DNA of 12,835 nucleotides from a virus. Lineage: Duplodnaviria > Heunggongvirae > Uroviricota > Caudoviricetes. The notes below the pieces were generated by a model. It was not told where the DNA came from. It did not search any database and was given only the letters and a program-made list of their open reading frames with translations. Shown one piece after another: positions 594 to 10,953 of the stretch. Made by a program: the position numbers and the translations under genes. The stretch lies in the IMG/VR virus record IMGVR_UViG_2737471853_000001, positions 1-12,835 of that record. One strand, written 5' to 3'. Numbering within the stretch: position 1 is the first letter of the stretch; every line of letters begins with the position of its first letter.

Positions 594-3500
594 TCAGAAT
601 ACTCCCGTTAATCGGCCAACCTGCACCCTAAGAACATTACTGCCATCTTTGACGCTGATCGTCTGATTTGTCAGTTTCATGGCTCCCTCACCAGCAGTCG
701 AACCGTAGTTCTCAAACGTCCCCCCTTTATCAAGCTTCCAGCCAGCAGAACCAGCAACATAATTGTTCGACTGGATAAAATTACCAATCTTTGCGTTGCT
801 GATAGTGCCGTCCTGAATGAGGGTGTCACGGATGAACACCTGCCCGTTCTGGATAACAAACGGCAGAGTCACGGTCCCTCCAGCCTGGGTCATAACCGCG
901 AAGCGGTCTGCCAGGAAGAGCACCTGCGACTGCATTCCCGCTGGCGTATTCTGAACACCAATCCCCATTCCTGCCGCGTACTGGTTGCCATTGGAATCAA
1001 CAGCTACCTTGATGCTGTACATCGCATTCAGGTTATTATTGATGTCGGCTGATACCTGGCTGTTCTGGATAATAGCCGCAGACTGACCATTTACTGTGAC
1101 CTTGAGCGAGTTAATTTGCGTAGCTGATACTTGAGTGAAATCAGCAAGCGTCTTAGACAGATCGGTAACATTCGCCGTGTTTCCACCGGCGCTGGAATCC
1201 AGGGTGCGCAGAGACTCAGCGACAGCTTTACTGGCGTCGGCCATCACATTGTCTACTCGATCGATACTGGCTTTGTTATCTCCATACTGGACGCTCAGGA
1301 GGTTGCGCTGGTTAACCTGCGCGAGCGTACTGGTGATCAGCGCGATAGCATTGTTCTGAATACCGCCGCTGGCCTTATCAGTTTGTGCACCCAGCTCTTC
1401 CAGGCGTGATGCCATTGAGGAATCGAGGTCCGTGACAACCTGGCTAAGGTCAGTGATTGATGCTGTATTCTGAGCACCTACAGCAGCTGCTGAATCAGCT
1501 TTGTCAGATGCGGCCTGAGTGGCAGCCGTCAACTGGCTTACAGCAGAAGCGCGCGCTTCAGTTTCCGTTGCTAAAGCCTGGCGAACATCAGTAATTCCGG
1601 CTTCATTCTGCGCAGTTTTTGCCTCAAGGCGAGTAACATCCGTGACGCGCGCTTCCGTCTCAGTGGCGATCACCTCCCGGAGCTGTTCGAATGTCGCAGA
1701 GTTAGCGCCCTGTTGGGCTGTCTGGCGCACGATAACATCGGCAATAGCCAGGGCGTTCCCAATGATTGCTTCTGCTGTCTGCTTATTCGAACCTACTGCT
1801 GCAGCCAGACCATCGGCGTTCTCCTTAATCGCATCAGAAAGTTCGGCCAGTTTCTCGCTACTTTCTACGGCACTCTCAATCAGATCCTTGAATACCTCAG
1901 AATCTTTAATCTCCTCCAGGATCACACTGGAGACATCAGAAACATCTATACTTGCCTGCCCACGAACCCAGCCGGTATAACCTGATTCGTTGCCGCTGCG
2001 GTCCACCAGCTGCGCGCGGTACCAGAAAATCTGCCCAGCCTTAAGGCCCATCTGCTGATATTTGCGCTGCGGGTAAGGCACATCGGCCAGCAGCATCGCA
2101 TCGTCTTCGGTACCGGTCAGACTGTACTGAATTTCCGTCTTCAGCGTGTCGTCGGTATTCGCCGGGAATCCCCAATTCAGCTCGATACCGAATACCACGT
2201 TTTCAGAAGCGATAAAGCCAACCGGCTTCGGTGGATTGCCCACTTTACCCGTCAGCGTTTTCTCTTCTGAGTAGCCCCATCCAGATGAAATTTCTGCGGC
2301 ATTGATTGCGCGCACGCGCACCAGGTAGCGCCCGGCATAAATCCCCGGGACATCGAATGACGTGGTGGAGCTGCGCGGCACGTTAACCCAGTTCCCGTCG
2401 TTGCGGCGCCATTGTGCTTCATAGGCGATAGCGTTCTGCGCCTGGTCCCAGCTCACGCGCATTGTTTCGACGCTGATATTTTGCTGAACCACGGAAAACG
2501 AGCTGATCACGATATTCGCAGGCGGCGACTGGTTACCAGGCGGGATCACGCTCACCGGCCGTTGGTCAATGATGGCTCCGGTATCGATACGGGCATATTT
2601 ATCCGGGTCGTGCCATGCGCCGGTGATTGAGAAAGTGCCATCCCCGTTATCGGAAACGCTGACAACTCGATACTGCTGCGCGTAGAGCTCGTCAGATTCA
2701 ACCACCCAAACAGCTTCGGCCTGTGGCGTCTCACTGTATGCCGTGGTGACTGTGACTGATTCCCCGTTCACGGCATGAATGGTCCTGCTCTGCGACGCTC
2801 CGGAGGGAAGGTTGAGAATAAGGCGATCACCTGGTGCTGCATCAGCTACGCGGTCAAGTTTGATAACGCGACCGTTAACGGCGCTGATGCGGCCGCCCAT
2901 AACCTTTCCGGAAAGCAGCTCGTCTGCCACGGCGATGATGTAGCCAGGCTGCGGAATGTTTCCGTCCAGCCCGACATCAAACGAAACAACGCGATCCTTG
3001 TTATTAGTGAGAATACCCCAGCGCCCCTTTCGGTTCGCCTCTGACTGCCTGGTGCAGCCGATGGCTGTCATTTCCAGCTGATTGAAGCCGTATCGCGCCA
3101 CCAGCGCCTGCTCAAATACCGGTTCCATCGCGTCGGCATAAGCGTTACCCGGGTCTGACCATGAAACCAGCGCTGTGGTGTAGCGGCTTTTCGTGGTGCT
3201 GCTCGAATAGGTGAAGCGACCGCCAACAACGTTAGCGCGCGTATAGCTGTAATCAACATCGCGCGGCATGTCAGCCAGGGCCACAATCTGATCCCCGCCC
3301 CAGTAGGTCATGCCACGGAAGATAGCGGCAAAATCACGCAGGACTGTGTAGGCGTCGTTCCGGTCCTGAATGTACACGTTGCAGGTATAACGTGGTTCTG
3401 TACCGTTGCCCCCTTTGCCGTCTGGTACCATCTGATCACAATACTGAGCAACCTGATAAAGCGTCCATTTATCAATATTCTCAGCGGTCAAACGGTGCCC

Positions 3501-4391
3501 AAGGCCGAACCGGTCAGAAACAACCAGGTCGTAAAAAATCCACGCAGGGTTATCCGTCCATGCCCACTTAAACGCACCGGTCCATGTACCGCTATAAGTG
3601 CGGGTTTCAGGGTCGTAGGTATCTGGAACGCGGATAACGCGGCCGCGCGGTTCGCATGAAATTTGAGGAATAGAGCCGTTGAACTGGCTTGAGTCGAATT
3701 CGACGTAGAGCAGCGCGGTGTTCGGGTAGCGCAGTTTGGCGTCAATCACCTCGGTGAAGCTCTGCAGCATCATCGTGTCGCCGATCTTCGCGCTGTTGGC
3801 GTCAGAGGTAATCTTACGCAGACGTATTGTCCAGGTGCTGCCAGCCTGCGGTAAATCGATACGGTGGCTGCGCTCATAACCTGAGGTCGTTTTACCGGTC
3901 ACGCTGGTATTGAGTACCGTCTGCCATGTGCCGCCGTCCGTCTGTAGGTCAATCGCATAATTGACCGAGTAACCCACCAGATCGCCGTCGTCTTCCTGTT
4001 TGAAAAGCGAGGGCCATTTAAGACGCAGGCGAACTGCTGAAAGCTGCGTATTGGTAAACGTGCGCGTCCAGGCTGTGGCACTTGATACCTCAGTTCCTAC
4101 GCTGATCTCGTTTTCGGTACCGGGAATACCCTGAATATATTTTTGCGCCTGAGTTCCCGCGCGAAACTCCCACGTTACCCCGCTGAAGTTTTGGGAGCCG
4201 TCAGCATTCTCCAGCGCTGTTCCGTCCAGGTAGATATCTTTGCCGGTGAGCTGCCCTGCAAACTCACCTTCCCCAAGCGCAACGAGGATTTTTGCCTTCG
4301 CTACAGATTGCAGATCATCAGGCTGTTCGGTAGGAGTTCGGGAACTTGAGCTGCCGCCCTTGCGGCCTTTTAACACTTTATCTGTAGCCAT
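594..4391 (-). CDS. J: Host specificity protein J (tail tip / central tail fibre), 1265 aa
   Basis: Sits after I as in lambda. N-terminal two-thirds resembles lambda gpJ as I recall it (e.g. the ...ISGVT..FRAG... and ...RITCN.Y... stretches, plus fibronectin-III-like region). The C-terminal ~400 aa is a coiled-coil with TETEAR repeats followed by a distal domain, and differs from lambda J. Confidence 0.93.
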   Translation of the reverse strand: MATDKVLKGRKGGSSSSRTPTEQPDDLQSVAKAKILVALGEGEFAGQLTGKDIYLDGTALENADGSQNFSGVTWEFRAGTQAQKYIQGIPGTENEISVGTEVSSATAWTRTFTNTQLSAVRLRLKWPSLFKQEDDGDLVGYSVNYAIDLQTDGGTWQTVLNTSVTGKTTSGYERSHRIDLPQAGSTWTIRLRKITSDANSAKIGDTMMLQSFTEVIDAKLRYPNTALLYVEFDSSQFNGSIPQISCEPRGRVIRVPDTYDPETRTYSGTWTGAFKWAWTDNPAWIFYDLVVSDRFGLGHRLTAENIDKWTLYQVAQYCDQMVPDGKGGNGTEPRYTCNVYIQDRNDAYTVLRDFAAIFRGMTYWGGDQIVALADMPRDVDYSYTRANVVGGRFTYSSSTTKSRYTTALVSWSDPGNAYADAMEPVFEQALVARYGFNQLEMTAIGCTRQSEANRKGRWGILTNNKDRVVSFDVGLDGNIPQPGYIIAVADELLSGKVMGGRISAVNGRVIKLDRVADAAPGDRLILNLPSGASQSRTIHAVNGESVTVTTAYSETPQAEAVWVVESDELYAQQYRVVSVSDNGDGTFSITGAWHDPDKYARIDTGAIIDQRPVSVIPPGNQSPPANIVISSFSVVQQNISVETMRVSWDQAQNAIAYEAQWRRNDGNWVNVPRSSTTSFDVPGIYAGRYLVRVRAINAAEISSGWGYSEEKTLTGKVGNPPKPVGFIASENVVFGIELNWGFPANTDDTLKTEIQYSLTGTEDDAMLLADVPYPQRKYQQMGLKAGQIFWYRAQLVDRSGNESGYTGWVRGQASIDVSDVSSVILEEIKDSEVFKDLIESAVESSEKLAELSDAIKENADGLAAAVGSNKQTAEAIIGNALAIADVIVRQTAQQGANSATFEQLREVIATETEARVTDVTRLEAKTAQNEAGITDVRQALATETEARASAVSQLTAATQAASDKADSAAAVGAQNTASITDLSQVVTDLDSSMASRLEELGAQTDKASGGIQNNAIALITSTLAQVNQRNLLSVQYGDNKASIDRVDNVMADASKAVAESLRTLDSSAGGNTANVTDLSKTLADFTQVSATQINSLKVTVNGQSAAIIQNSQVSADINNNLNAMYSIKVAVDSNGNQYAAGMGIGVQNTPAGMQSQVLFLADRFAVMTQAGGTVTLPFVIQNGQVFIRDTLIQDGTISNAKIGNFIQSNNYVAGSAGWKLDKGGTFENYGSTAGEGAMKLTNQTISVKDGSNVLRVQVGRLTGVF

Positions 4392-4402
4392 ATTGCGCCC
4401 AT

Positions 4403-4433
4403 AAAAAAGCCACCCGAAGGTGGCCAGAAAAAA
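4403..4433 (-). terminator. Intergenic GC stem-loop with flanking U-tracts between I and J (terminator-like or mRNA-stabilising hairpin)
   Basis: Minus strand reads TTTTTT-ctg-GCCACC-ttcg-GGTGGC-TTTTTT-atgggcgcaat-ATG(J). Stem 4409-4414 / 4419-4424 with UUCG-type loop; U-run follows at 4402-4408. Confidence 0.4.
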
Positions 4434-4443
4434 GGTTAGTTAT

Positions 4444-5049
4444 CTACTGCTGATCTTCGACATAAATTCCGGCAGAAATAATCGCTCCGCCGATTCGACG
4501 CTTACCATAAAGCAGAGGCACTGGGTAGCCTTGCGCTGCAGTGTTGGTTACCCCGCCAAACGCATACGATGCACGGTTATCTGCGCTTTGTTTACTGGCT
4601 ATGCCTGATGGCTGCGGTGAAAGCAGCTGAATAACCCCACCGAGGACCAACGAGGCACCAGTGGCAGCAGCAAACCACGTCAATCCACCAGCAGCGAAAG
4701 CAGCGCCAATACCGCCAGAAACAAAGACTGCAGCAGTTATCAAAACTGCTCCTAATATCGTCTGAAAAAGACCAGCGCGTTTACTACCGATAATTACAGG
4801 CATAATCCTTACTACATCGCCTTCAGAGGGAAAACCCATCTCATCTGCGGCAATATTTCTTTTCCCTTTGAACACCGCGAAAGTTAATCCGCGACGTTTA
4901 CTGCTGATCATGAAACTTTCGAAACCGGGCAATGTTTTACTTAAAGCAATAGCAGCTTCACCAGTTCGCGCTATCAGTCGTTGATGGGTTCTACCGAATG
5001 TCTTTCCTAACACTCCGCCGAGCTGAATTGTTGTCATTACTTCTTTCAT
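4444..5049 (-). CDS. I: Tail assembly protein I
   Basis: 201 aa, located between K and J as in lambda; hydrophobic Gly/Ala-rich C-terminal half typical of gpI. The true start could be the internal Met (MTTIQ...) 12 nt downstream. Confidence 0.85.
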   Translation of the reverse strand: MKEVMTTIQLGGVLGKTFGRTHQRLIARTGEAAIALSKTLPGFESFMISSKRRGLTFAVFKGKRNIAADEMGFPSEGDVVRIMPVIIGSKRAGLFQTILGAVLITAAVFVSGGIGAAFAAGGLTWFAAATGASLVLGGVIQLLSPQPSGIASKQSADNRASYAFGGVTNTAAQGYPVPLLYGKRRIGGAIISAGIYVEDQQ

Positions 5050-5060
5050 ATTCTCACCAT

Positions 5061-5080
5061 AAAAAACCCGCCGAAGCGGG
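5061..5080 (-). terminator. Rho-independent terminator candidate downstream of the lipoprotein gene
   Basis: Minus strand reads CCCGC-ttcg-GCGGG followed by TTTTTT (stem 5067-5071 / 5076-5080, U-run 5061-5066), 12 nt after the lipoprotein stop and 11 nt before the I start codon. Confidence 0.55.
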
Positions 5081-5091
5081 TTAAGTCTTGG

Positions 5092-5433
5092 TTAGATACA
5101 GCGTTCTATTACTTTAATCCGGCTGTTTATTCGATAAGCAAATAGCCCACCTTGATGACGGAATTCAATCTTGGTAATTCCGCCGTCCGATATTAAATCA
5201 ACCATCTCAAGTTGAGATTGTGTAAATACAGTTTTACCACCGTCATAAGGCTGAATAAAAACGCTTCCATATTTTTGGCTTTCTTCTTGCCAGCCAGAGA
5301 GTATGCATTCAGCTACTGCGTCAATTTGTTTCTTCGATTGAAAAGTATTTGACGCTGGTTCCTTCCGGAGATCCTGCATACTCGAACAACCAGCCATGAT
5401 TATCAAAGAAAGTGTCAATAATGTTTTTTTCAT
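5092..5433 (-). CDS. Predicted outer-membrane lipoprotein (113 aa precursor) inserted between K and I; candidate moron
   Basis: The ORF track entry 5092..5601 overlaps the 3' end of K; the plausible start is the internal ATG at 5431-5433 (MKKTLLTLSLIIMAGC-SS...). This gives a signal peptide with lipobox IMAG-C and Ser at +2. AAAGGGG lies 9 nt upstream as a ribosome-binding site. Region is AT-rich relative to neighbours. Followed by a terminator. Confidence 0.7.
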   Translation of the reverse strand: MKKTLLTLSLIIMAGCSSMQDLRKEPASNTFQSKKQIDAVAECILSGWQEESQKYGSVFIQPYDGGKTVFTQSQLEMVDLISDGGITKIEFRHQGGLFAYRINSRIKVIERCI

Positions 5434-5462
5434 ATCCCTATCCCCTTTGGTTTTGCAAAAGG

Positions 5463-6173
5463 TTAGCACAGAGATTTGTAACGTAGAATCTTCATCGTCC
5501 TTTCCTGCCAGTAGCCACCATACGGCACGCGCTGGCTCAGATGTCCGTACAGGTGGTGCAGCAGCATATTTCCCTCCAGCAGAATTCCCGCGTGATTCCA
5601 CTTATCGGCCTGGACCTGCATGATCACCATATCACCGGGTTTCGGTGGTCCGTCGAATTCACGGAATCCGCATTCATACCAGCAATCCTGATAAAAATTG
5701 TCCGGATAGGCGTTTTCCCACCAGGGATAATCCACCCGGTAATCGTGGAGCTCGATACCATGCGTTTGCCGGAAATAGCTCATTACCAGCCCCCAGCAGT
5801 CGAAGTGTCCAAGCACAAACGGACGCTCCAGCAGTGGCAGTTCTCCGCGCGGCTGGATGGTGCGTAAATCCCCCTCCGGCCAGCTCACAATATGCCAGGG
5901 TAAAAGCGTTGCGTCGCATTGCGCTTTATCCAGTTCGCTCGGCTGCGTAGTGGCGTCAGGGTGACTGTGAACGATGGCGATCACCGTACCCCAGTCCTCA
6001 GCAGCTGCATAGTCTTCTGGCGACAGGTGAAAATGTTCTGTCGGCTCGGTAGCGAGGTTACTACATGGAAAATATTTCTCTACCCGGCTCTTTTGCGCCA
6101 CCACGCCGCAACACTCACTAGGATATTCAGCTGCAGCATGCGCCATAATCGCATCGATGGTTTTCTGACGCAT
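5463..6173 (-). CDS. K: Tail assembly protein K (JAMM/MPN metalloprotease-like domain plus NlpC/P60 domain)
   Basis: 236 aa. JAMM motif H-S-H-x7-S-x2-D visible in ...AIVHSHPDATTQPSELD...; NlpC/P60-like Cys/His in ...FDCWGLV... and ...HAGILL.... Position between L and I matches lambda. Confidence 0.9.
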   Translation of the reverse strand: MRQKTIDAIMAHAAAEYPSECCGVVAQKSRVEKYFPCSNLATEPTEHFHLSPEDYAAAEDWGTVIAIVHSHPDATTQPSELDKAQCDATLLPWHIVSWPEGDLRTIQPRGELPLLERPFVLGHFDCWGLVMSYFRQTHGIELHDYRVDYPWWENAYPDNFYQDCWYECGFREFDGPPKPGDMVIMQVQADKWNHAGILLEGNMLLHHLYGHLSQRVPYGGYWQERTMKILRYKSLC

Positions 6174-6930: not shown

Positions 6931-7268
6931 GGTTTGTAGGCCTGTTCAAAAGTTGCAGAAAGATTAAATAACCCGGCACCAAGTGGCGTTGGTGTGTAGG
7001 TGTCGCAGCGGTAAAGCCCGAGAGGCTCAAGCGGCGGGCGCCACTGAAACGCCGTCACGCCCGCATGGCGATCGAGAAAGTCTTTAATCGCCCCGATATA
7101 CGTTTCGGTACCGGTAAACTGGAGAGTCCATTTCTGCGAGCGGGGATTAATCCCGTCGCAGGAAACCTGCTGATATCCGTCACCGAACTGCGCGGTGCGC
7201 CGTCGGAATGTCACTTCCTGCTCCGCGTTCGGGCGCGGACACCAGCTGAATGTTTCTATAGCCATCAC
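6927..7268 (-). CDS. M: Minor tail protein M
   Basis: 113 aa directly after the tape measure gene; contains the FGDGY.Q motif shared with lambda gpM. Start overlaps the H stop (ATGA). Confidence 0.88.
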   Translation of the reverse strand: MMAIETFSWCPRPNAEQEVTFRRRTAQFGDGYQQVSCDGINPRSQKWTLQFTGTETYIGAIKDFLDRHAGVTAFQWRPPLEPLGLYRCDTYTPTPLGAGLFNLSATFEQAYKP

Positions 7269-9685
7269 CGCCCTCCTTTTGCCAGATTCCAGACCGCGCC
7301 ACCGGGTGAAAGGTCACGGCCTATCAACTCTCGGTATCGCCGATCAACAAAACTACCTACCTCCCGCCCGAATTGCTCATATCCACCGCTAGCCTGAGTC
7401 TGGGTATTCCCATTGCCATCAATCTGAATACTGACCTGAGGAGCACTACTACCACCCGGTGTTAAGCCTGAGATTCCCATAGCACGCACGCCCAGCGATC
7501 CGTCAGCGGCGCGGGTCAGTGGCATAATAGCCTCCGGCCCAGCCTCCCCCATCAATCCGGCCCCTTTGGCAAAGGCAAACAGTGTTGGAGAGCTGACGAC
7601 AGAGTTACTGTACTGACTGAGATCGGCAGAAGAGTAAACGCCGCCTTTGGCGTTGAATTGCAGGCTCGCCCCGTAGGACTGAATCGCAGTACCGCTGCTG
7701 GCGGAAGACGATGCGGCACCACCGAACAATGAGCCTATCGAGCTGGCTGCATTGGCGATCATCATGTTAACCATCACCTGTTCGATGATTTTCAGAACAC
7801 TGACACCCCAGTCTTTCCAGCTCGCTTTATTGCCGTTGAGCATGTCGACGATATTGCTGCTGATACCGGAAAGCGCGCTTTTCATAGCGTCCGCCGCCAG
7901 CGTCGCATAGTTAGTTGAATCATCTACCCAGTCAGCGAGACCGTCTCTGGCGCCAGTCACCCAGTCAGACTGCAGCGCATCAATTTGACTGTAATAATCC
8001 TCCTGGATGCCCAGCCTCTCAGCTTGCGCATCCTTTAATGCCTGGGTTTCGCGGTCATAAACTGTCTGGCTGATATCTCCTGACTGATACTGCTTTTGCA
8101 GATCGCGCAGCTGATCGAGATAACTGCGCTCTATACTCAGCCTTTCCCTCAGCCTTTCACGCTGCTTGTCACCGAGTCCGGCCCCCTGAATATCCACGCC
8201 CAAATCTGCACGTGCATTCTCGTTCTGCTCCTGCAGATTTGCCACGAACGCCGCTACCTTCGCGTTTTCTTCATTAGCTTTTTTGACGGCATTAAGGCGA
8301 TCAACTTCCTGAGCCAGAGACGCAAGTCGTTTCTTCTGGGTTTCGTTAAGCCCCTGCAACTTGCCGTCAGCTATATCGAACTGCAGTTTTTGCTGCTCGG
8401 TCACCACAGCAGTTTTTTTGCCGGTGGTATCGATCAGCTCAATCTGACGCATGTAACTGCGCTCAGCGCTTTTAAACGCTGAATCCAGTTTCTGACCAGA
8501 GGTATTTTTTTGCGGCTTACCGTTTGTTTCCCCGGCGCCAAGGGTATAGTTTGTTTTGACTGGCTCGGGCAGTTTTATTTCCGGTAGAGTAGATTGGGAG
8601 TTTCTCAAAAAGGCCAGTCGCCTCTGGAGCTCAGCCCTTTCGGCCTCCTTACTGGATACGTCCATACCTATTCTGTTGAAACTCGCCAGTATGCCTTTAT
8701 CATCGAGATCTGCATTCAGGTTCTTGATGCGCCGTTCAATTTCTGGAATGGAGGCATTCAGGCCGACCGAACTCCCACCTTTGTACTGGTCTATCAGCTT
8801 TCCGGCCTCGGCTCCTACCCTTACCAGCCAGGTGGCAAGGTCCACTACCCCACCAACCAGATCAGTCAGACCCTGAATAACAGCCGGGTCTTTAAATACA
8901 TCCCCCATATCTCCAATAGACTTCTGGAGCCCACTCAAATCTACGCTGGCGAGCCCTGCAGCAAGTTCAATTTTGACGCCGTTGACCTGCGTCTCCATAT
9001 CCTCAAACAGGGCGTTGACTCTGACCAGCTTTTCAATATCTGCGTCATCGGGCGCCACACCAAACTTCTTCGCGGCATCCATATACTGACGCAGCTTTTC
9101 ACTGCCATTGTCCAGGAGCGGCAGCATCTTTGACAGGTCATTACCCAGACTCTCCAGGATGGTAGTCTTCTCGGCGTTGGACTTAACTTTCTCCAGTGCG
9201 TCGCTGATAGCCAGGAGTTGCTTGTCGGGAGATTCTCCGGCCAGTTTCTTAGCCGACAAACCCAGAGCGTCCAGCGCACCGACCGCCTCACCAGATTTAT
9301 TAAGAACGGCATCACCGATTTTGTCTCCGACATCTTTAAAGATATCGGCCATCTGATCGCCGGAAACACCTGCTTTTTCTGCAGCATATTGCCAGGCTAA
9401 CAGGGACTGCGTGGACATGTTAAGTGACTTTGCCCAGCGGTCTGATTCGGTAATCTGACGTGAAGTGGTTTTGAGCAGGTTATACCCCGCCACTCCGGCT
9501 CCGATGGCTGCAGCCCCGACTGCTGTTGCGAATCCGGTCATGGCAGCTGCAGCGGCAGCGGCATCCTCCTTTACCTGCTTACGCCATTTTTGTGAAGCTC
9601 GCTCAGCCTGCGAGAGGCCTGAGACAAAACCGCCCACTTTGGCAATCAGGTCGATCGTCAGCGTGCCCAGTGATTTGGAAGCCAT
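7265..9685 (-). CDS. H: Tail tape measure protein (lambda gpH-like), 806 aa
   Basis: Large alpha-helical protein with Ala/Gly-rich hydrophobic segments, immediately downstream of the G/G-T chaperone genes. GGAGAG ribosome-binding site 7 nt upstream of the ATG. Confidence 0.9.
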   Translation of the reverse strand: MASKSLGTLTIDLIAKVGGFVSGLSQAERASQKWRKQVKEDAAAAAAAMTGFATAVGAAAIGAGVAGYNLLKTTSRQITESDRWAKSLNMSTQSLLAWQYAAEKAGVSGDQMADIFKDVGDKIGDAVLNKSGEAVGALDALGLSAKKLAGESPDKQLLAISDALEKVKSNAEKTTILESLGNDLSKMLPLLDNGSEKLRQYMDAAKKFGVAPDDADIEKLVRVNALFEDMETQVNGVKIELAAGLASVDLSGLQKSIGDMGDVFKDPAVIQGLTDLVGGVVDLATWLVRVGAEAGKLIDQYKGGSSVGLNASIPEIERRIKNLNADLDDKGILASFNRIGMDVSSKEAERAELQRRLAFLRNSQSTLPEIKLPEPVKTNYTLGAGETNGKPQKNTSGQKLDSAFKSAERSYMRQIELIDTTGKKTAVVTEQQKLQFDIADGKLQGLNETQKKRLASLAQEVDRLNAVKKANEENAKVAAFVANLQEQNENARADLGVDIQGAGLGDKQRERLRERLSIERSYLDQLRDLQKQYQSGDISQTVYDRETQALKDAQAERLGIQEDYYSQIDALQSDWVTGARDGLADWVDDSTNYATLAADAMKSALSGISSNIVDMLNGNKASWKDWGVSVLKIIEQVMVNMMIANAASSIGSLFGGAASSSASSGTAIQSYGASLQFNAKGGVYSSADLSQYSNSVVSSPTLFAFAKGAGLMGEAGPEAIMPLTRAADGSLGVRAMGISGLTPGGSSAPQVSIQIDGNGNTQTQASGGYEQFGREVGSFVDRRYRELIGRDLSPGGAVWNLAKGGR

Positions 9686-9704: not shown

Positions 9705-10366
9705 TTATGTCCAGCTGGCTCTGGCTTCCTCTAACGAGATTGGTCCATCAGCAGCTTTGACTTTGGTAAAGTGAAGTGTGAAATCGGTCGGGTTGAATGG
9801 TGGGCGCTTGGGGTCTCTGTTAACGTTGGCTATCATGCTGCTCACCAGCCCGGCACCCCACTCAACCCGCAACATAGGGTTCAGACTCCCGTATCGTTCC
9901 CGGTACTTTGCCCAGAGTTGGGACTCTTTGAATGAGAGGACTTCCCGCGCTTCGGCGATTGTTCTGCCTCCGATTCCGTTGAGGACGAGCTCGCACCAGA
10001 ATTCGTCTTCGGCGCTGAGCTCGAAGTCTTTCCCAGATCGTTAACTTCCTGAATGGCCAGAAGCAGTGCTACCGTCAGGCCGCCATCCAGTGCACCACGT
10101 TCAGGATCTGCCTCACCAGTAATGTCAGCCGGGGTGAAGATGGGTTTACCATGTTCATCGCAGATGGATGCGGCGATACGCCCTGCCACACCATCGACCT
10201 TACCACCAAAAGCCAGCACATCGGACGTTGCTGTGTGATAACCCATCGGGCGAACATACACGGTCGCGGTGATTTTTTTATCGCCTTGCGTCCAGGTGAT
10301 TTCTTTCTCAACCGGGCGACCGGTAAACGCGCCGGACTCCTTGAGTGCATCAAGTGTTAATTTCAT
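9705..10366 (-). CDS. G-T: Tail assembly chaperone G-T fusion produced by programmed -1 ribosomal frameshift (about 220 aa)
   Basis: After a -1 slip on G-GGA-AAG (10028-10034) the new frame is open for 107 codons (GKDFELSAEDEFWCELVLNGIGGRTIAEAREV...EEARASWT) and stops at TAA 9705-9707, 19 nt before the H start. Hand translation from the sequence. Confidence 0.72.
9881..10366 (-). CDS. G: Tail assembly chaperone G (zero-frame product, 161 aa)
   Basis: Sits between major tail protein and tape measure. AGGA ribosome-binding site 8 nt upstream. Contains the slippery heptamer at codons 112-113. The zero frame continues 48 codons past the slip site as a Ser/Thr-rich low-complexity tail. Confidence 0.8.
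   Translation of the reverse strand: MKLTLDALKESGAFTGRPVEKEITWTQGDKKITATVYVRPMGYHTATSDVLAFGGKVDGVAGRIAASICDEHGKPIFTPADITGEADPERGALDGGLTVALLLAIQEVNDLGKTSSSAPKTNSGASSSSTESEAEQSPKRGKSSHSKSPNSGQSTGNDTGV
10028..10034 (-). other. Programmed -1 frameshift slippery heptamer GGGAAAG
   Basis: Plus strand CTTTCCC at 10028-10034 is GGGAAAG on the minus strand, in register xxG-GGA-AAG with G codons 112-113. This is the same heptamer used for the lambda G/G-T shift. Confidence 0.7.
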
Positions 10367-10384
10367 TATTAATCCTGATTAATA

Positions 10385-10400
10385 AGGGCGTTGCCGCCCT
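10385..10400 (-). promoter_or_regulatory. Perfect 6-bp GC stem-loop in the major-tail / G intergenic region
   Basis: Minus strand reads AGGGCG-gcaa-CGCCCT, 4 nt after the major tail stop codon. The following U-tract is weak (TATTAAT), so this is more likely a 3' stabilising hairpin or attenuator than a strong terminator. Confidence 0.35.
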
Positions 10401-10404
10401 GATT

Positions 10405-10905
10405 TTATGGGGTCACGACTTTTGGCACCCATACAGCAGAGCCGGAGCGCTGGATAGATGCAGAAGTAGAAACAACCGTGTTTGCTGCAAAATCAAACGG
10501 GAAGTCGGACACATAGCCTTTGAATACGAACCATGTGCGGCTATCAGGTAGCACCAGGCCATCGACTGCACCGGATGCACCATTTTCAGCCGCAGTTGGC
10601 GATGCGGTTCCGTCTGACCATCCAATCGCGAAGGTCAGGTCCTGATCCTCTTCGTCGTCCGAAATGGACAGGTTGTAGAGCATGATGTGGCTGGTATTTT
10701 TAGGATCAGCGTTAAGCGTCAGTGATGCTGTGCCAGGCGTTCGAAGACCACGCTTATAGCTGCGATCAAAGCGTTCAGAAAGACAGGTGTCTTCAATCTG
10801 GTCAGCCGGATTGCTGCCGGGTGAAAATGCAGTGATACATTCAACTTCGCTCACCTCGCCTTTTACGAGCACAAAGAGCTGCGTACCTTGCGTCAATACA
10901 GACAT
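10405..10905 (-). CDS. Major tail (tube) protein, 166 aa
   Basis: Called by position: directly upstream of the G/G-T chaperone pair and downstream of the DUF3168-like gene. GGAGA ribosome-binding site 6 nt upstream; hairpins flank it on both sides. Family not recognised with certainty from sequence. Confidence 0.7.
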
Positions 10906-10931
10906 TGTTATCTCCGGTCATAAAAAAACCG

Positions 10932-10953
10932 GCTCAAGGCCGGTTGTTGAATA
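10932..10953 (-). terminator. Terminator-like hairpin plus U7 upstream of the major tail gene
   Basis: Minus strand reads CCGGC-cttga-GCCGG-TTTTTTT (stem 10939-10943 / 10949-10953, U-run 10932-10938), lying between the DUF3168 gene stop and the major tail start. Confidence 0.45.

Follow-up and report, generated by a model that had tools for sequence, protein, structure and literature searches.

Terminators in the Late Operons of Lambdoid Phages

In the lambdoid phages HK97 and HK022 (GenBank AF069529 and AF069308), moron terminators occupy the junctions between the tail genes K and I and between I and J, each made of a hairpin and a T-run located 9-12 nt before the next start codon. For HK97, putative terminators are annotated at 13799-13824 (before I) and at 15107-15129 (before J). 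Genes 22 and 23 fill the I-J slot of these phages, and the slot genes are labelled as moron products in both records. The moron terminators of HK97 and HK022 were reportedly described by Juhala and colleagues in 2000 (J Mol Biol 299:27). As defined in PMC3594210, which cites that study, a moron has its own promoter and terminator, a deviant GC content and expression from the prophage. HK97 gene 15, in the T-H slot, is a moron whose product, a superinfection exclusion protein, is a small envelope protein made in the prophage state (PMC3594210). The terminator of this gene, upstream of H, reads ACCCGC-TATCAA-GCGGGT-T8-ATGGGTGAAAATATG.

The tR' terminator of phage lambda, which is read through with the help of Q, likewise consists of a canonical hairpin and U-tract that late transcription has to cross, on the downstream side of the Q gene. 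This terminator closely follows the late promoter, and experiments have demonstrated that it is read through. Polymerase modified by Q reads through intrinsic terminators. In P22, the "ant moron" lies in an insert-prone variable slot directly 5' of the host-recognition (tailspike) gene, within a Q-dependent late operon; in this podovirus, the slot holds an immunity region of several genes, with repressors and an antisense RNA, and not a single resident terminator.

Position of the Window Among HK97-Like Phages

The window, i.e., the whole stretch of 12,835 nucleotides analyzed here, is the tail-gene region of coliphage mEpX2 (99.8% identity), an HK022/HK97-like lambdoid phage of the Hendrixvirinae group, with its genes on the minus strand. 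A Q antiterminator is annotated in mEpX2 upstream of the tail operon and in the same orientation. A hairpin with a U-tract precedes both I and J (hereafter the pre-I and pre-J hairpins); these elements lie 17-18 kb further downstream, inside the tail genes, and, in contrast to lambda tR', are predicted from the sequence. In the K-I slot, the window carries a predicted lipoprotein gene (113 aa, phrog_914), which differs from the gp20-type insert of HK022 in both gene and stem sequence. The pre-I hairpin is almost the same module as the terminator of HK97 gene 15, although the latter belongs to another slot and another cargo; also, prophage expression is documented for gp15, whereas the lipoprotein of the window is known from its sequence. 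In relatives, the I-J slot (4392..4443, minus strand) has repeatedly received morons. Filled in HK97 and HK022, it is empty in mEpX2, with a length of 52 nt, so that the pre-J element itself is not part of a moron here.

The comparison of the same junctions in related phages, which the earlier note had proposed, revealed that both hairpins are already known in kind, as terminators are annotated at the same positions in sister phages. Such annotations are present in the GenBank records of HK97 (as putative), HK75, mEpX1 and mEp234, and in that of HK446 for the pre-I site, and the pre-J terminators of mEpX1 ("rho-independent terminator") and HK75 ("terminator") are identical in sequence to that of the window. 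The records of mEpX2 and HK140 have no terminator annotated at these positions, and our analysis is of use in exposing this gap relative to their relatives. Its consequence for discovery is small: what it recovers is the terminator side of the moron architecture on which HK97/HK022 genomics was built. Our literature search yielded nothing usable on mEp phages, lambda late-gene expression or 3'-end data. The comparison also separated a cargo-linked pre-I hairpin from a resident pre-J hairpin, as detailed below.

Structure and Folding of the Modules

The near-identical hairpin, U-tract and ATG modules described in the earlier note are both present on the minus (coding) strand. The pre-I hairpin (5065..5082, minus strand) consists of a 5' arm AACCCGC (5082..5076), a loop TTCG (5075..5072) and a 3' arm GCGGGTT (5071..5065). 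It is followed by a U-tract at 5061..5066 (T6 here, but T7 in the mEpX2 record of GenBank), and by the translation start region of I (5047..5060), in which ATGG (5060..5057) opens the sequence ATGGTGAGAAT, with the Shine-Dalgarno GGTGAG and then the ATG at 5049..5047. The pre-J hairpin (4408..4425, minus strand) has a 5' arm GGCCACC (4425..4419), the same TTCG loop (4418..4415) and a 3' arm GGTGGCT (4414..4408). Its U-tract at 4403..4408 is a T6 (T6 to T8 in relatives), and the start region of J (4389..4402) shows ATGG at 4402..4399 within ATGGGCGCAAT, then the ATG at 4391..4389. The consensus scan gave seven pairs for each stem, five of them G-C, and a 4-nt loop, the two hairpins having in common the C(UUCG)G tetraloop. 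The stems are of 6-7 bp instead of the 5-6 bp first described, and the 17 nt to the start codon are counted from the G/C stem and not from the U-tract, whose end is 11 nt away. On the coding strand, a T6 adjoins both stems; no T-run follows the hairpin on the other strand.

The two modules are not the only ones in the window, as a third of the same build precedes the major tail gene (10922..10945, minus strand). Its hairpin (10945..10927) pairs AACCGGC with GCCGGTT around a CTTGA loop and is followed by T7, ATGACCGGAGATAACA and the ATG at 10905. The end of this module and the ATG of the major tail gene are 16 nt apart, a GGAGA Shine-Dalgarno lying between them, and the equivalent position in HK97 carries an annotated putative terminator of a different sequence. 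The distance from terminator to next start codon ranges from 17 to 20 nt. The shared sequence TTTTTTATGG reads as the U-tract followed by the first bases of the ribosome-binding site of the next gene. A mini-ORF starting at the conserved ATG after the T-run (ATG GTG AGA ATA TGA before I, its stop overlapping the I start) was also considered, and rejected as the main reading: this ATG has no Shine-Dalgarno, it is missing in other cargo types, and the pre-J version varies in length, with 10 codons here and an open end in relatives.

The isolated hairpins gave folding energies of -11.8 kcal/mol (z = -2.9) for pre-I and -12.7 kcal/mol (z = -4.5) for pre-J, within an overall range of about -10 to -13 kcal/mol. 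A strict site was defined as a perfect stem of at least 6 bp with at least 4 G/C pairs, a loop of 3-6 nt and at least 5 contiguous T. Three such sites were detected in the window, all of them intergenic and in the sense orientation (coding strand), against a mean of 0.03 and never more than one in 300 dinucleotide shuffles; the same three are the only strict sites in 37 kb of the mEpX2 genome. Approximate d-scores, which are indicative only, ranged from 18 to 29, the trpA and lambda tR2 terminators scoring about 30. Pre-I and pre-J both combine the features of Rho-independent terminators, with a G/C-rich stem in the range of about 5-14 bp, a short loop and a U run directly 3' of the stem, on the transcribed strand only. 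The description of these structures as intrinsic-terminator-like thus held for every sequence criterion tested. A search of positions 4000..5600 against Rfam at a permissive E-value returned no family at gathering score; the hits to isrK (the best, 19.6 bits for a threshold of 50) and rsmX (18.7 for 56) were attributed to chance, driven by the terminator.

A Predicted Lipoprotein Moron in the K-I Slot

The 113-codon ORF between K and I (5092..5433, minus strand; annotated as mEpX2_019) would encode a lipoprotein, with the lipobox MKKTLLTLSLIIMAG followed by C. As this ORF intervenes, the pre-I hairpin is not directly after K. The hairpin begins 9-10 nt past the ORF stop codon, a distance at which a terminating ribosome could hinder its formation. 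The GC content of the gene is 40% (39-41% over 5075..5524), compared with 51-60% in the flanks, namely K and J. The protein matches the family phrog_914, of unknown function, and gave no match in Pfam, NCBIfam or PADLOC. In the homology search, its homologues came from enterobacterial genomes only and were unnamed, apart from one fragment labelled YcfL. The 280 nt upstream of the ORF contain no match to the sigma-70 consensus, and a window-wide scan revealed no promoter at this place either; the best candidates of a relaxed scan matched 8 of 12 positions with a 19-nt spacer, and weak or non-consensus promoters are possible. Independent expression of the lipoprotein moron in the lysogen is thus unsupported by the sequence.

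Comparison with 131 related loci pointed to a link between this insert and the pre-I hairpin. K and I overlap by 13 nt in 22 of these loci, whereas the slot of the window holds a 413-nt insert. The hairpin is absent from all 22 loci with the K/I overlap, versus 44 of 52 loci with a K-I insert which possess it. At least eight cargo types were recognized in this slot, each with its own stem sequence. By this distribution, the pre-I hairpin belongs to the cargo, as the predicted terminator of the inserted lipoprotein gene. The slot thus presents several traits of a moron, with extra DNA between genes that are adjacent in relatives, a deviant base composition and its own predicted terminator. The link to moron insertion suggested in the earlier note is close to correct for pre-I, which is the 3' end of a resident moron and not the footprint of a lost one; it does not extend to pre-J.

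Conservation of the Pre-J Hairpin

Of 78 viral loci, 75 have the pre-J hairpin, with an I-J slot that is either empty (58/59) or filled (17/19), and so do most of 51 genome loci, comprising prophages of many Enterobacterales genera. The predicted terminator is kept in loci with no insert in the K-I or the I-J slot (e.g., L043-L050). Insulation from neighbouring morons is thus not the sole reason for this predicted terminator to exist. The left border of the conserved J block, which runs into J, coincides with the 5' arm of the hairpin, and the sequence beyond it differs between lineages. Distribution and position together do not fit the footprint of a moron; they indicate that the pre-J hairpin is a putative terminator of the resident kind, with which the conserved J block opens at its 5' edge and the I-J slot is closed. 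In Proteus relatives, J starts without any such element.

The stem positions were paired in 95.5% of 199 cells, with variable loops, compared with 32-65% when the stem was slid along the alignment. The middle pair was A-U in 19 of 35 sequences and G-C in 13 of 35, both sides being changed in 14 of 35, and none of 500 shuffles reached the covariation score. Covariation is essentially confined to a single base pair and the set includes many close relatives, so that the data are modest evidence that pre-J is a conserved structured RNA element with compensatory pairing. The T-run plus ATGGG before J is at least 90% conserved across genera, from Escherichia to Pantoea, and the next six bases vary. 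The distance from the stem end to the start codon is 17 nt in nearly all pre-J copies and in both main pre-I types.

Lambda has a hairpin homologous to pre-J between I and J (15466-15485), which reads AAACCGCC-TGCG-GGCGGTTT, then ...TTTATGGAGCG and the J start. Its stem variant ACCGCC/GGCGGT is also found in L017 and in several genera. The U-tract is interrupted (TTTTGTCATTT), and the hairpin scores as a poor terminator. To our knowledge, no function has been assigned to it.

Proposed Function of the Predicted Terminators

We consider, with a probability of roughly three in four, that pre-I and pre-J are unidirectional Rho-independent terminators within a Q-dependent late operon, which belong to the moron architecture first described for these phages, pre-I being linked to its cargo and pre-J resident. 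In the lysogen, a polymerase starting from a moron promoter or from a spurious one would not be modified by Q and would stop at the hairpins. The genes I, J and those downstream would thereby be silent, and moron expression would still be possible. After induction, Q-modified polymerase coming from the late promoter would pass both terminators and leave the hairpins in the long late mRNA, where they may act as 3' barriers after processing.

The split between a cargo-linked and a resident element bears on the origin of moron slots, as the places that take up inserts may be those in which the next gene is already shielded by a terminator. Also, the K-I slot is a hot spot for small lipoprotein or membrane-protein genes of unknown function, which are plausible candidates for superinfection exclusion.

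Alternative Explanations

The hairpins could serve the stability or processing of the mRNA. Blocking 3'-5' exonucleases after endonucleolytic cuts in the late transcript that passes the sites, the stable cUUCGg hairpins would give longer-lived upstream segments (the moron-K side and I) and possibly 5' protective hairpins to the downstream segments, a role which may coexist with that of terminator. The retention of pre-J with no neighbouring insert and across genera with variable loops, together with that of the lambda hairpin despite its decayed U-tract, suggests selection on the stem itself, and hairpins without U-tracts occur after the major tail gene in both HK97 and the window. Nevertheless, except in lambda, conservation of the U-tract (T6 to T8) equals that of the stem, although a pure exonuclease barrier would not need it, and the pre-I hairpin travels with the insert and not with K or I. 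As the main function of the two elements, we regard mRNA protection as unlikely.

The main idea of the earlier note was partial termination or attenuation that sets the stoichiometry of the tail-tip proteins. During lytic growth, a constant share of the late transcripts would then stop ahead of I and again ahead of J, and yield fewer tail-tip and downstream products. The sites are strong terminators by sequence, the products of the genes downstream are needed in few copies, a similar hairpin stands before the major tail gene, and in P22 the moron adjoining the tailspike gene on its upstream side is believed to influence how often late transcription gets as far as that gene (PMC2629481). However, an annotated Q antiterminator is located upstream of the operon, and the third module is found ahead of the most abundant tail protein, contrary to the expectation from down-tuning. 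The pre-I hairpin is missing whenever the insert is missing (0/22) and is thus not required for the expression of I. The relative expression of the lambda late genes is said to have been ascribed to translation initiation by Sampson and colleagues, in PNAS in 1988. As for attenuation proper, no leader peptide or competing antiterminator structure was seen in contexts of 61-71 nt, in which the minimum-energy and centroid folds both keep the hairpin and the flanks contribute weak pairs only; together with the Rfam result, this speaks against it. Partial termination thus seems to us quite improbable.

We attach similarly little credence to a cassette of dual purpose, in which the pre-J hairpin, the U7, the AUGGG, the six variable bases and the AUG would form one conserved unit. 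Such a unit would insulate the host-range gene J from lysogen transcription, and its U-tract and out-of-frame AUG/GGG, 11 nt before the true start, would set a deliberately low translation of J. It would explain the retention of the hairpin without an insert, the conservation of U7-AUGGG at 90% or more, and the persistence in lambda of hairpin and AUGG despite the decayed U-tract.

It is just as doubtful that the elements are translation-initiation modules, in which the hairpin would clear the start region and the U-tract would serve as a landing site for ribosomal protein S1, offsetting a weak Shine-Dalgarno, with termination being incidental. The 17-nt spacing and the conserved T-run with ATGGG described above are in line with this idea, and so is the Shine-Dalgarno of J (GGGCG), weak as read from the sequence. 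Also, insertion into the K-I slot destroys the K/I overlap, so that I needs an independent start site. Yet A-U-rich enhancers need no GC hairpin, the 22 insert-free phages start I without one, and the Proteus relatives do the same for J. Other cargo types have GGAGG, GGGGG or GGTGA at the Shine-Dalgarno position of I, and a strong GGAGG thus follows the same kind of terminator.

The duplication of a module put forward in the earlier note, or conserved "linker" patches of homology for module exchange between phages, is very unlikely: the modules are about 72% identical over 36 nt (counted by eye), a near-identical ACCCGC...GCGGGT-T(n)-ATGG precedes I here, H in HK97 and J in the Pantoea prophage L139, and the J block has the sharp left border noted above, but with elements of such small length and such strong functional constraint, common descent and convergence are indistinguishable, their stems differ at three base pairs, and their likeness beyond stem, loop and T-run is limited to AT, a G-rich ribosome-binding site and the start codon. 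A duplication is neither needed nor demonstrable here. The shared TTTTTTATGG recurs at unrelated junctions; it is found in HK97 before the protease gene, H, I and J, where it reads as a U-tract, AU and then a G-rich Shine-Dalgarno.

Phage Identity and Putative Terminators

The hairpin and U-tract elements located just upstream of tail genes I and J (hereafter pre-I and pre-J hairpins) appear to be Rho-independent terminators; such elements have been described and annotated before in phages of this group. This reading draws on their canonical anatomy, their sense-only orientation, a strong excess over chance, the cargo-linked distribution of one element versus the resident distribution of the other, a conserved stem and U-tract in the pre-J element, and the presence of the late antiterminator Q upstream. 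The window matched Escherichia phage mEpX2 (Hendrixvirinae, HK022 genus) with 99.8% identity, and its close relatives are HK140, HK446, HK106, mEp235, mEpX1, mEp234, HK75, HK022 and HK97. GenBank 'terminator' features are present at both junctions in HK97 (putative), HK75, mEpX1 and mEp234, and at one junction in HK446, HK106 and mEp235. The pre-J region of the window is the same at every base as those of mEpX1 and HK75. Seven putative terminators are annotated in the HK97 late operon, four of which are followed by a T-run, ATGG(G), 7-8 nt and ATG.

The window presents the usual lambdoid tail order, entirely on the minus strand, with the head-tail genes first: the major tail gene (10905..10405), the tail chaperone genes, the tape measure gene H (9685..7265), M, then L, K (6173..5463, with JAB and NlpC/P60 domains), a 113-codon ORF (5433..5092), I (5049..4444, matching a PHROG tail assembly family) and J (4391..594). 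As mEpX2 has an annotated Q ahead of its lysis, head and tail genes, all in a single orientation, the two modules lie deep within a Q-dependent late operon. Among the chaperone genes, a 56-aa ORF annotated as hypothetical (9705..9875, minus strand) matched a PHROG tail family and, at 24.7 bits (cut-off 25.9), Pfam Phage_tail_T. This ORF probably supplies the T portion of a G-T tail chaperone, reached by programmed -1 frameshifting out of the 161-aa ORF before it (9881..10366, minus strand); the mEpX2 records do not annotate it in this way.

Anatomy of the Modules

Both modules were found in the window as the earlier note described them. On the minus strand, the pre-I module reads AACCCGC-TTCG-GCGGGTT (5082..5065), T6 (5066..5061), ATGGTGAGAAT and ATG (5049), and the pre-J module reads GGCCACC-TTCG-GGTGGCT (4425..4408), T6 (4408..4403), ATGGGCGCAAT and ATG (4391). 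The folding-energy check which that note proposed gave -11.8 and -12.7 kcal/mol for the isolated pre-I and pre-J hairpins (z-scores -2.9 and -4.5). Some details had to be corrected: the stems are longer than reported, at 6-7 bp (7 pairs each, 5 of them G-C, in the terminator scan), the pre-I hairpin is preceded by the 113-codon ORF and not by K, and the spacing of 17 nt to the start codons holds from the G/C stem, the distance from the end of the U-tract being 11 nt. The T-run before I (5061..5066, minus strand) is T6 in the window versus T7 in GenBank mEpX2 (JQ182726), and since relatives span T6 to T8 at both junctions, its length is either polymorphic or prone to sequencing error.

With loose criteria, terminators were not above chance over the whole window (15 found, 12.5 expected). 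Strict criteria required a perfect stem of 6 bp or more with no fewer than 4 G/C pairs, and 5 or more contiguous T. They returned exactly three sites, each intergenic and on the coding strand, against a mean of 0.03 in 300 dinucleotide shuffles of the window, and these three sites were the only strict matches in 37 kb of phage genome. The third module, missed in the earlier reading, is AACCGGC-CTTGA-GCCGGTT, T7, ATGACCGGAGATAACA and ATG 10905 (10905..10945, minus strand); it sits directly ahead of the major tail gene, in an insert-free gap of 54 nt, with a GGAGA Shine-Dalgarno after T7. At the equivalent junction, HK97 carries an annotated putative terminator; its sequence and the HK97 major tail protein are both unrelated to those of mEpX2. 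Just past the stop of the major tail gene (~10383..10398, minus strand), we also observed a G/C hairpin, AGGGCGGCAACGCCCT, lacking a U-tract; the putative terminator annotated at 7443-7462 in HK97 likewise lacks a T-run.

The two modules share TTTTTTATGG. The bases following the T-run across cargo types (ATGGTGAGAAT, ATGGGGGCAGC, ATTATTGGAGGTTAC, ACGTGGGGGGATTAT, ATTTGGAGGTGCT, ATTGTTGGAGATAAA, ATAAGGTGAAAAA, ATTAGGAGAATAT) show a more general theme of U-tract, A(U), a G-rich Shine-Dalgarno, 5-8 nt and AUG, of which ATGG is the special case where the Shine-Dalgarno begins directly after AU. The upstream ATG was rejected as a mini-ORF start: it is out of frame, it has no Shine-Dalgarno of its own and the mini-ORF is not conserved. 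We read the near-identity of the two modules as a shared design under tight packing, to which common descent possibly contributes; the proposed duplication of a module cannot be shown, as the elements are too short and the stems differ at three pairs.

A Cargo-Linked and a Resident Element

Morons are extra genes inserted between two neighbors; they were defined on these phages, and PMC3594210 (which cites Juhala et al., 2000) describes them as inserts whose GC content deviates and which bring a promoter and a terminator of their own, allowing expression from the repressed prophage. The HK97 and HK022 records label genes in both slots as 'moron' (HK022 gp20 between K and I, genes 22/23 between I and J). 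In the window, the ORF between K and I encodes a 113-aa protein whose N-terminus, MKKTLLTLSLIIMAG/C..., is a typical lipoprotein signal with lipobox, and its GC content is ~40% versus 51-60% in K and J. Its sole family match was phrog_914, with no assigned function, and its homologues are unnamed proteins of enterobacterial genomes. Of the defining moron features, a promoter was looked for upstream of this ORF, and no sigma-70 consensus match was found there.

The K-I junction was scorable in 74 of 80 viral contigs that encode an I homologue at 67-100% amino-acid identity. K and I overlap by 13 nt in 22 of them, none with a hairpin; in the other 52, the two genes are separated by 321-1918 nt of inserted DNA, closed in 44 cases by a hairpin and T-run 17-20 nt ahead of the I start. 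The stem sequence is specific to each cargo type, and this, with the contrast between 0/22 and 44/52 loci, argues that the terminator travels with the cargo. The suggestion of a moron-insertion footprint was therefore right as to the moron and wrong as to the scar, the pre-I hairpin being the 3' end of a resident moron. The inserts, of at least 8 unrelated types (K-I slots of L010-L089 and window 5092..5433, minus strand; lipoboxes MAGC, IAGC, MVGC and FGC), are mostly small lipoprotein or membrane-protein genes, and the slot is a hot spot for small lipoprotein genes without assigned function. From its position, one may speculate that the 113-aa lipoprotein is a candidate for superinfection exclusion or receptor masking.

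The same suggestion fails for the pre-J hairpin. In the 78 loci of this set with a scorable I-J spacer, the terminator occurs in 58 of 59 'empty' spacers (47-55 nt) and closes 17 of 19 filled ones (267-1497 nt, varied cargo). Of the three loci that depart from this pattern, L052 has a point-mutated stem, L039 belongs to a lineage whose J start differs, and in L041 the hairpin is split by an IS3-family element. The pre-J hairpin is thus a standing feature of the J 5' flank, and apparently serves as the terminator of inserts that land ahead of it. The conserved block runs from the 5' arm through T6-8-ATGGGCGCAAT-ATG into J, and to the left of the hairpin the lineages diverge. In a scan of one genome per species, the element was present in prophages of Enterobacter, Klebsiella, Citrobacter, Kluyvera, Kosakonia, Buttiauxella, Atlantibacter, Ewingella, Rahnella, Erwinia, Yokenella and Pantoea, the latter with a J 56% identical, and was absent only from Proteus prophages, where the I-J spacer is 19 nt. 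Loops vary (TTCG, TTTG, TCAG, TACG, AGAT, TAA, CTCC, others), while 95.5% of stem cells are paired, compared with 32-65% in slid controls. Of 35 sequences, 19 have A-U and 13 have G-C at the middle pair; as this single pair carries the signal, the alignment points to a real but modest covariation. Lambda (L090, 15445..15504) has a homologous hairpin in its I-J spacer, AAACCGCC-TGCG-GGCGGTTT, followed by TGTCATTTATGGAGCG... and the J ATG. Its U-tract is interrupted, and the ...TTTATGG.GCG motif again precedes the start of J. To our knowledge, no function has been assigned to this hairpin.

Our additions are modest: the cargo-linked pre-I terminator versus the resident pre-J terminator, the wide phylogenetic reach of the latter with a decayed copy in lambda, and the lipoprotein hot spot.

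Proposed Mechanism and Alternatives

From what is established about late transcription in lambdoid phages and about morons, polymerase lacking Q modification, started in a lysogen from a moron or spurious promoter, would halt at these terminators. I, J and whatever follows them would then stay off, and the lipoprotein gene could still be expressed. After induction, Q-modified polymerase would pass through. As a rival or in addition to termination, the hairpins may slow 3'-5' decay of upstream segments of the late mRNA, or the U-tract may help the 30S subunit bind at J, whose start site is weak. Both roles are worth keeping open because the pre-J element is kept in phages with both slots empty (e.g., L043-L050) and a similar hairpin, of unrelated sequence, precedes the highly expressed major tail gene in mEpX2 and HK97. 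Partial termination tuning tail-tip stoichiometry in lytic growth, the idea preferred in the earlier note, is disfavored by the Q context, by the absence of the pre-I hairpin from all insert-free phages and by a like element preceding the most abundant tail protein.

Inserts in the I-J Slot

Seven I-J slots (L013, L027, L037, L042, L051, L056, L060) contain different cargo types, with ORFs of 64-210 aa on either strand, that all finish on the right in CCTGATATT(C/T)A(A/G)ACAGTA, immediately ahead of the resident hairpin. The shared end suggests that these cargo types derive from a single ancestral insert and were not inserted independently. In L041 (IMGVR_UViG_2916446609_000005, 3110..4606), the IS3-family element (~1.44 kb, reverse orientation; orfA with HTH_Tnp_1, orfB with rve) lies exactly in the pre-J hairpin loop and duplicates TTCG on either side (GCCACCTTCG/TGAAGTGAACCCC...GGGGTTCACTTCA/TTCGGGTGGC), which is reminiscent of IS elements targeting hairpin loops.
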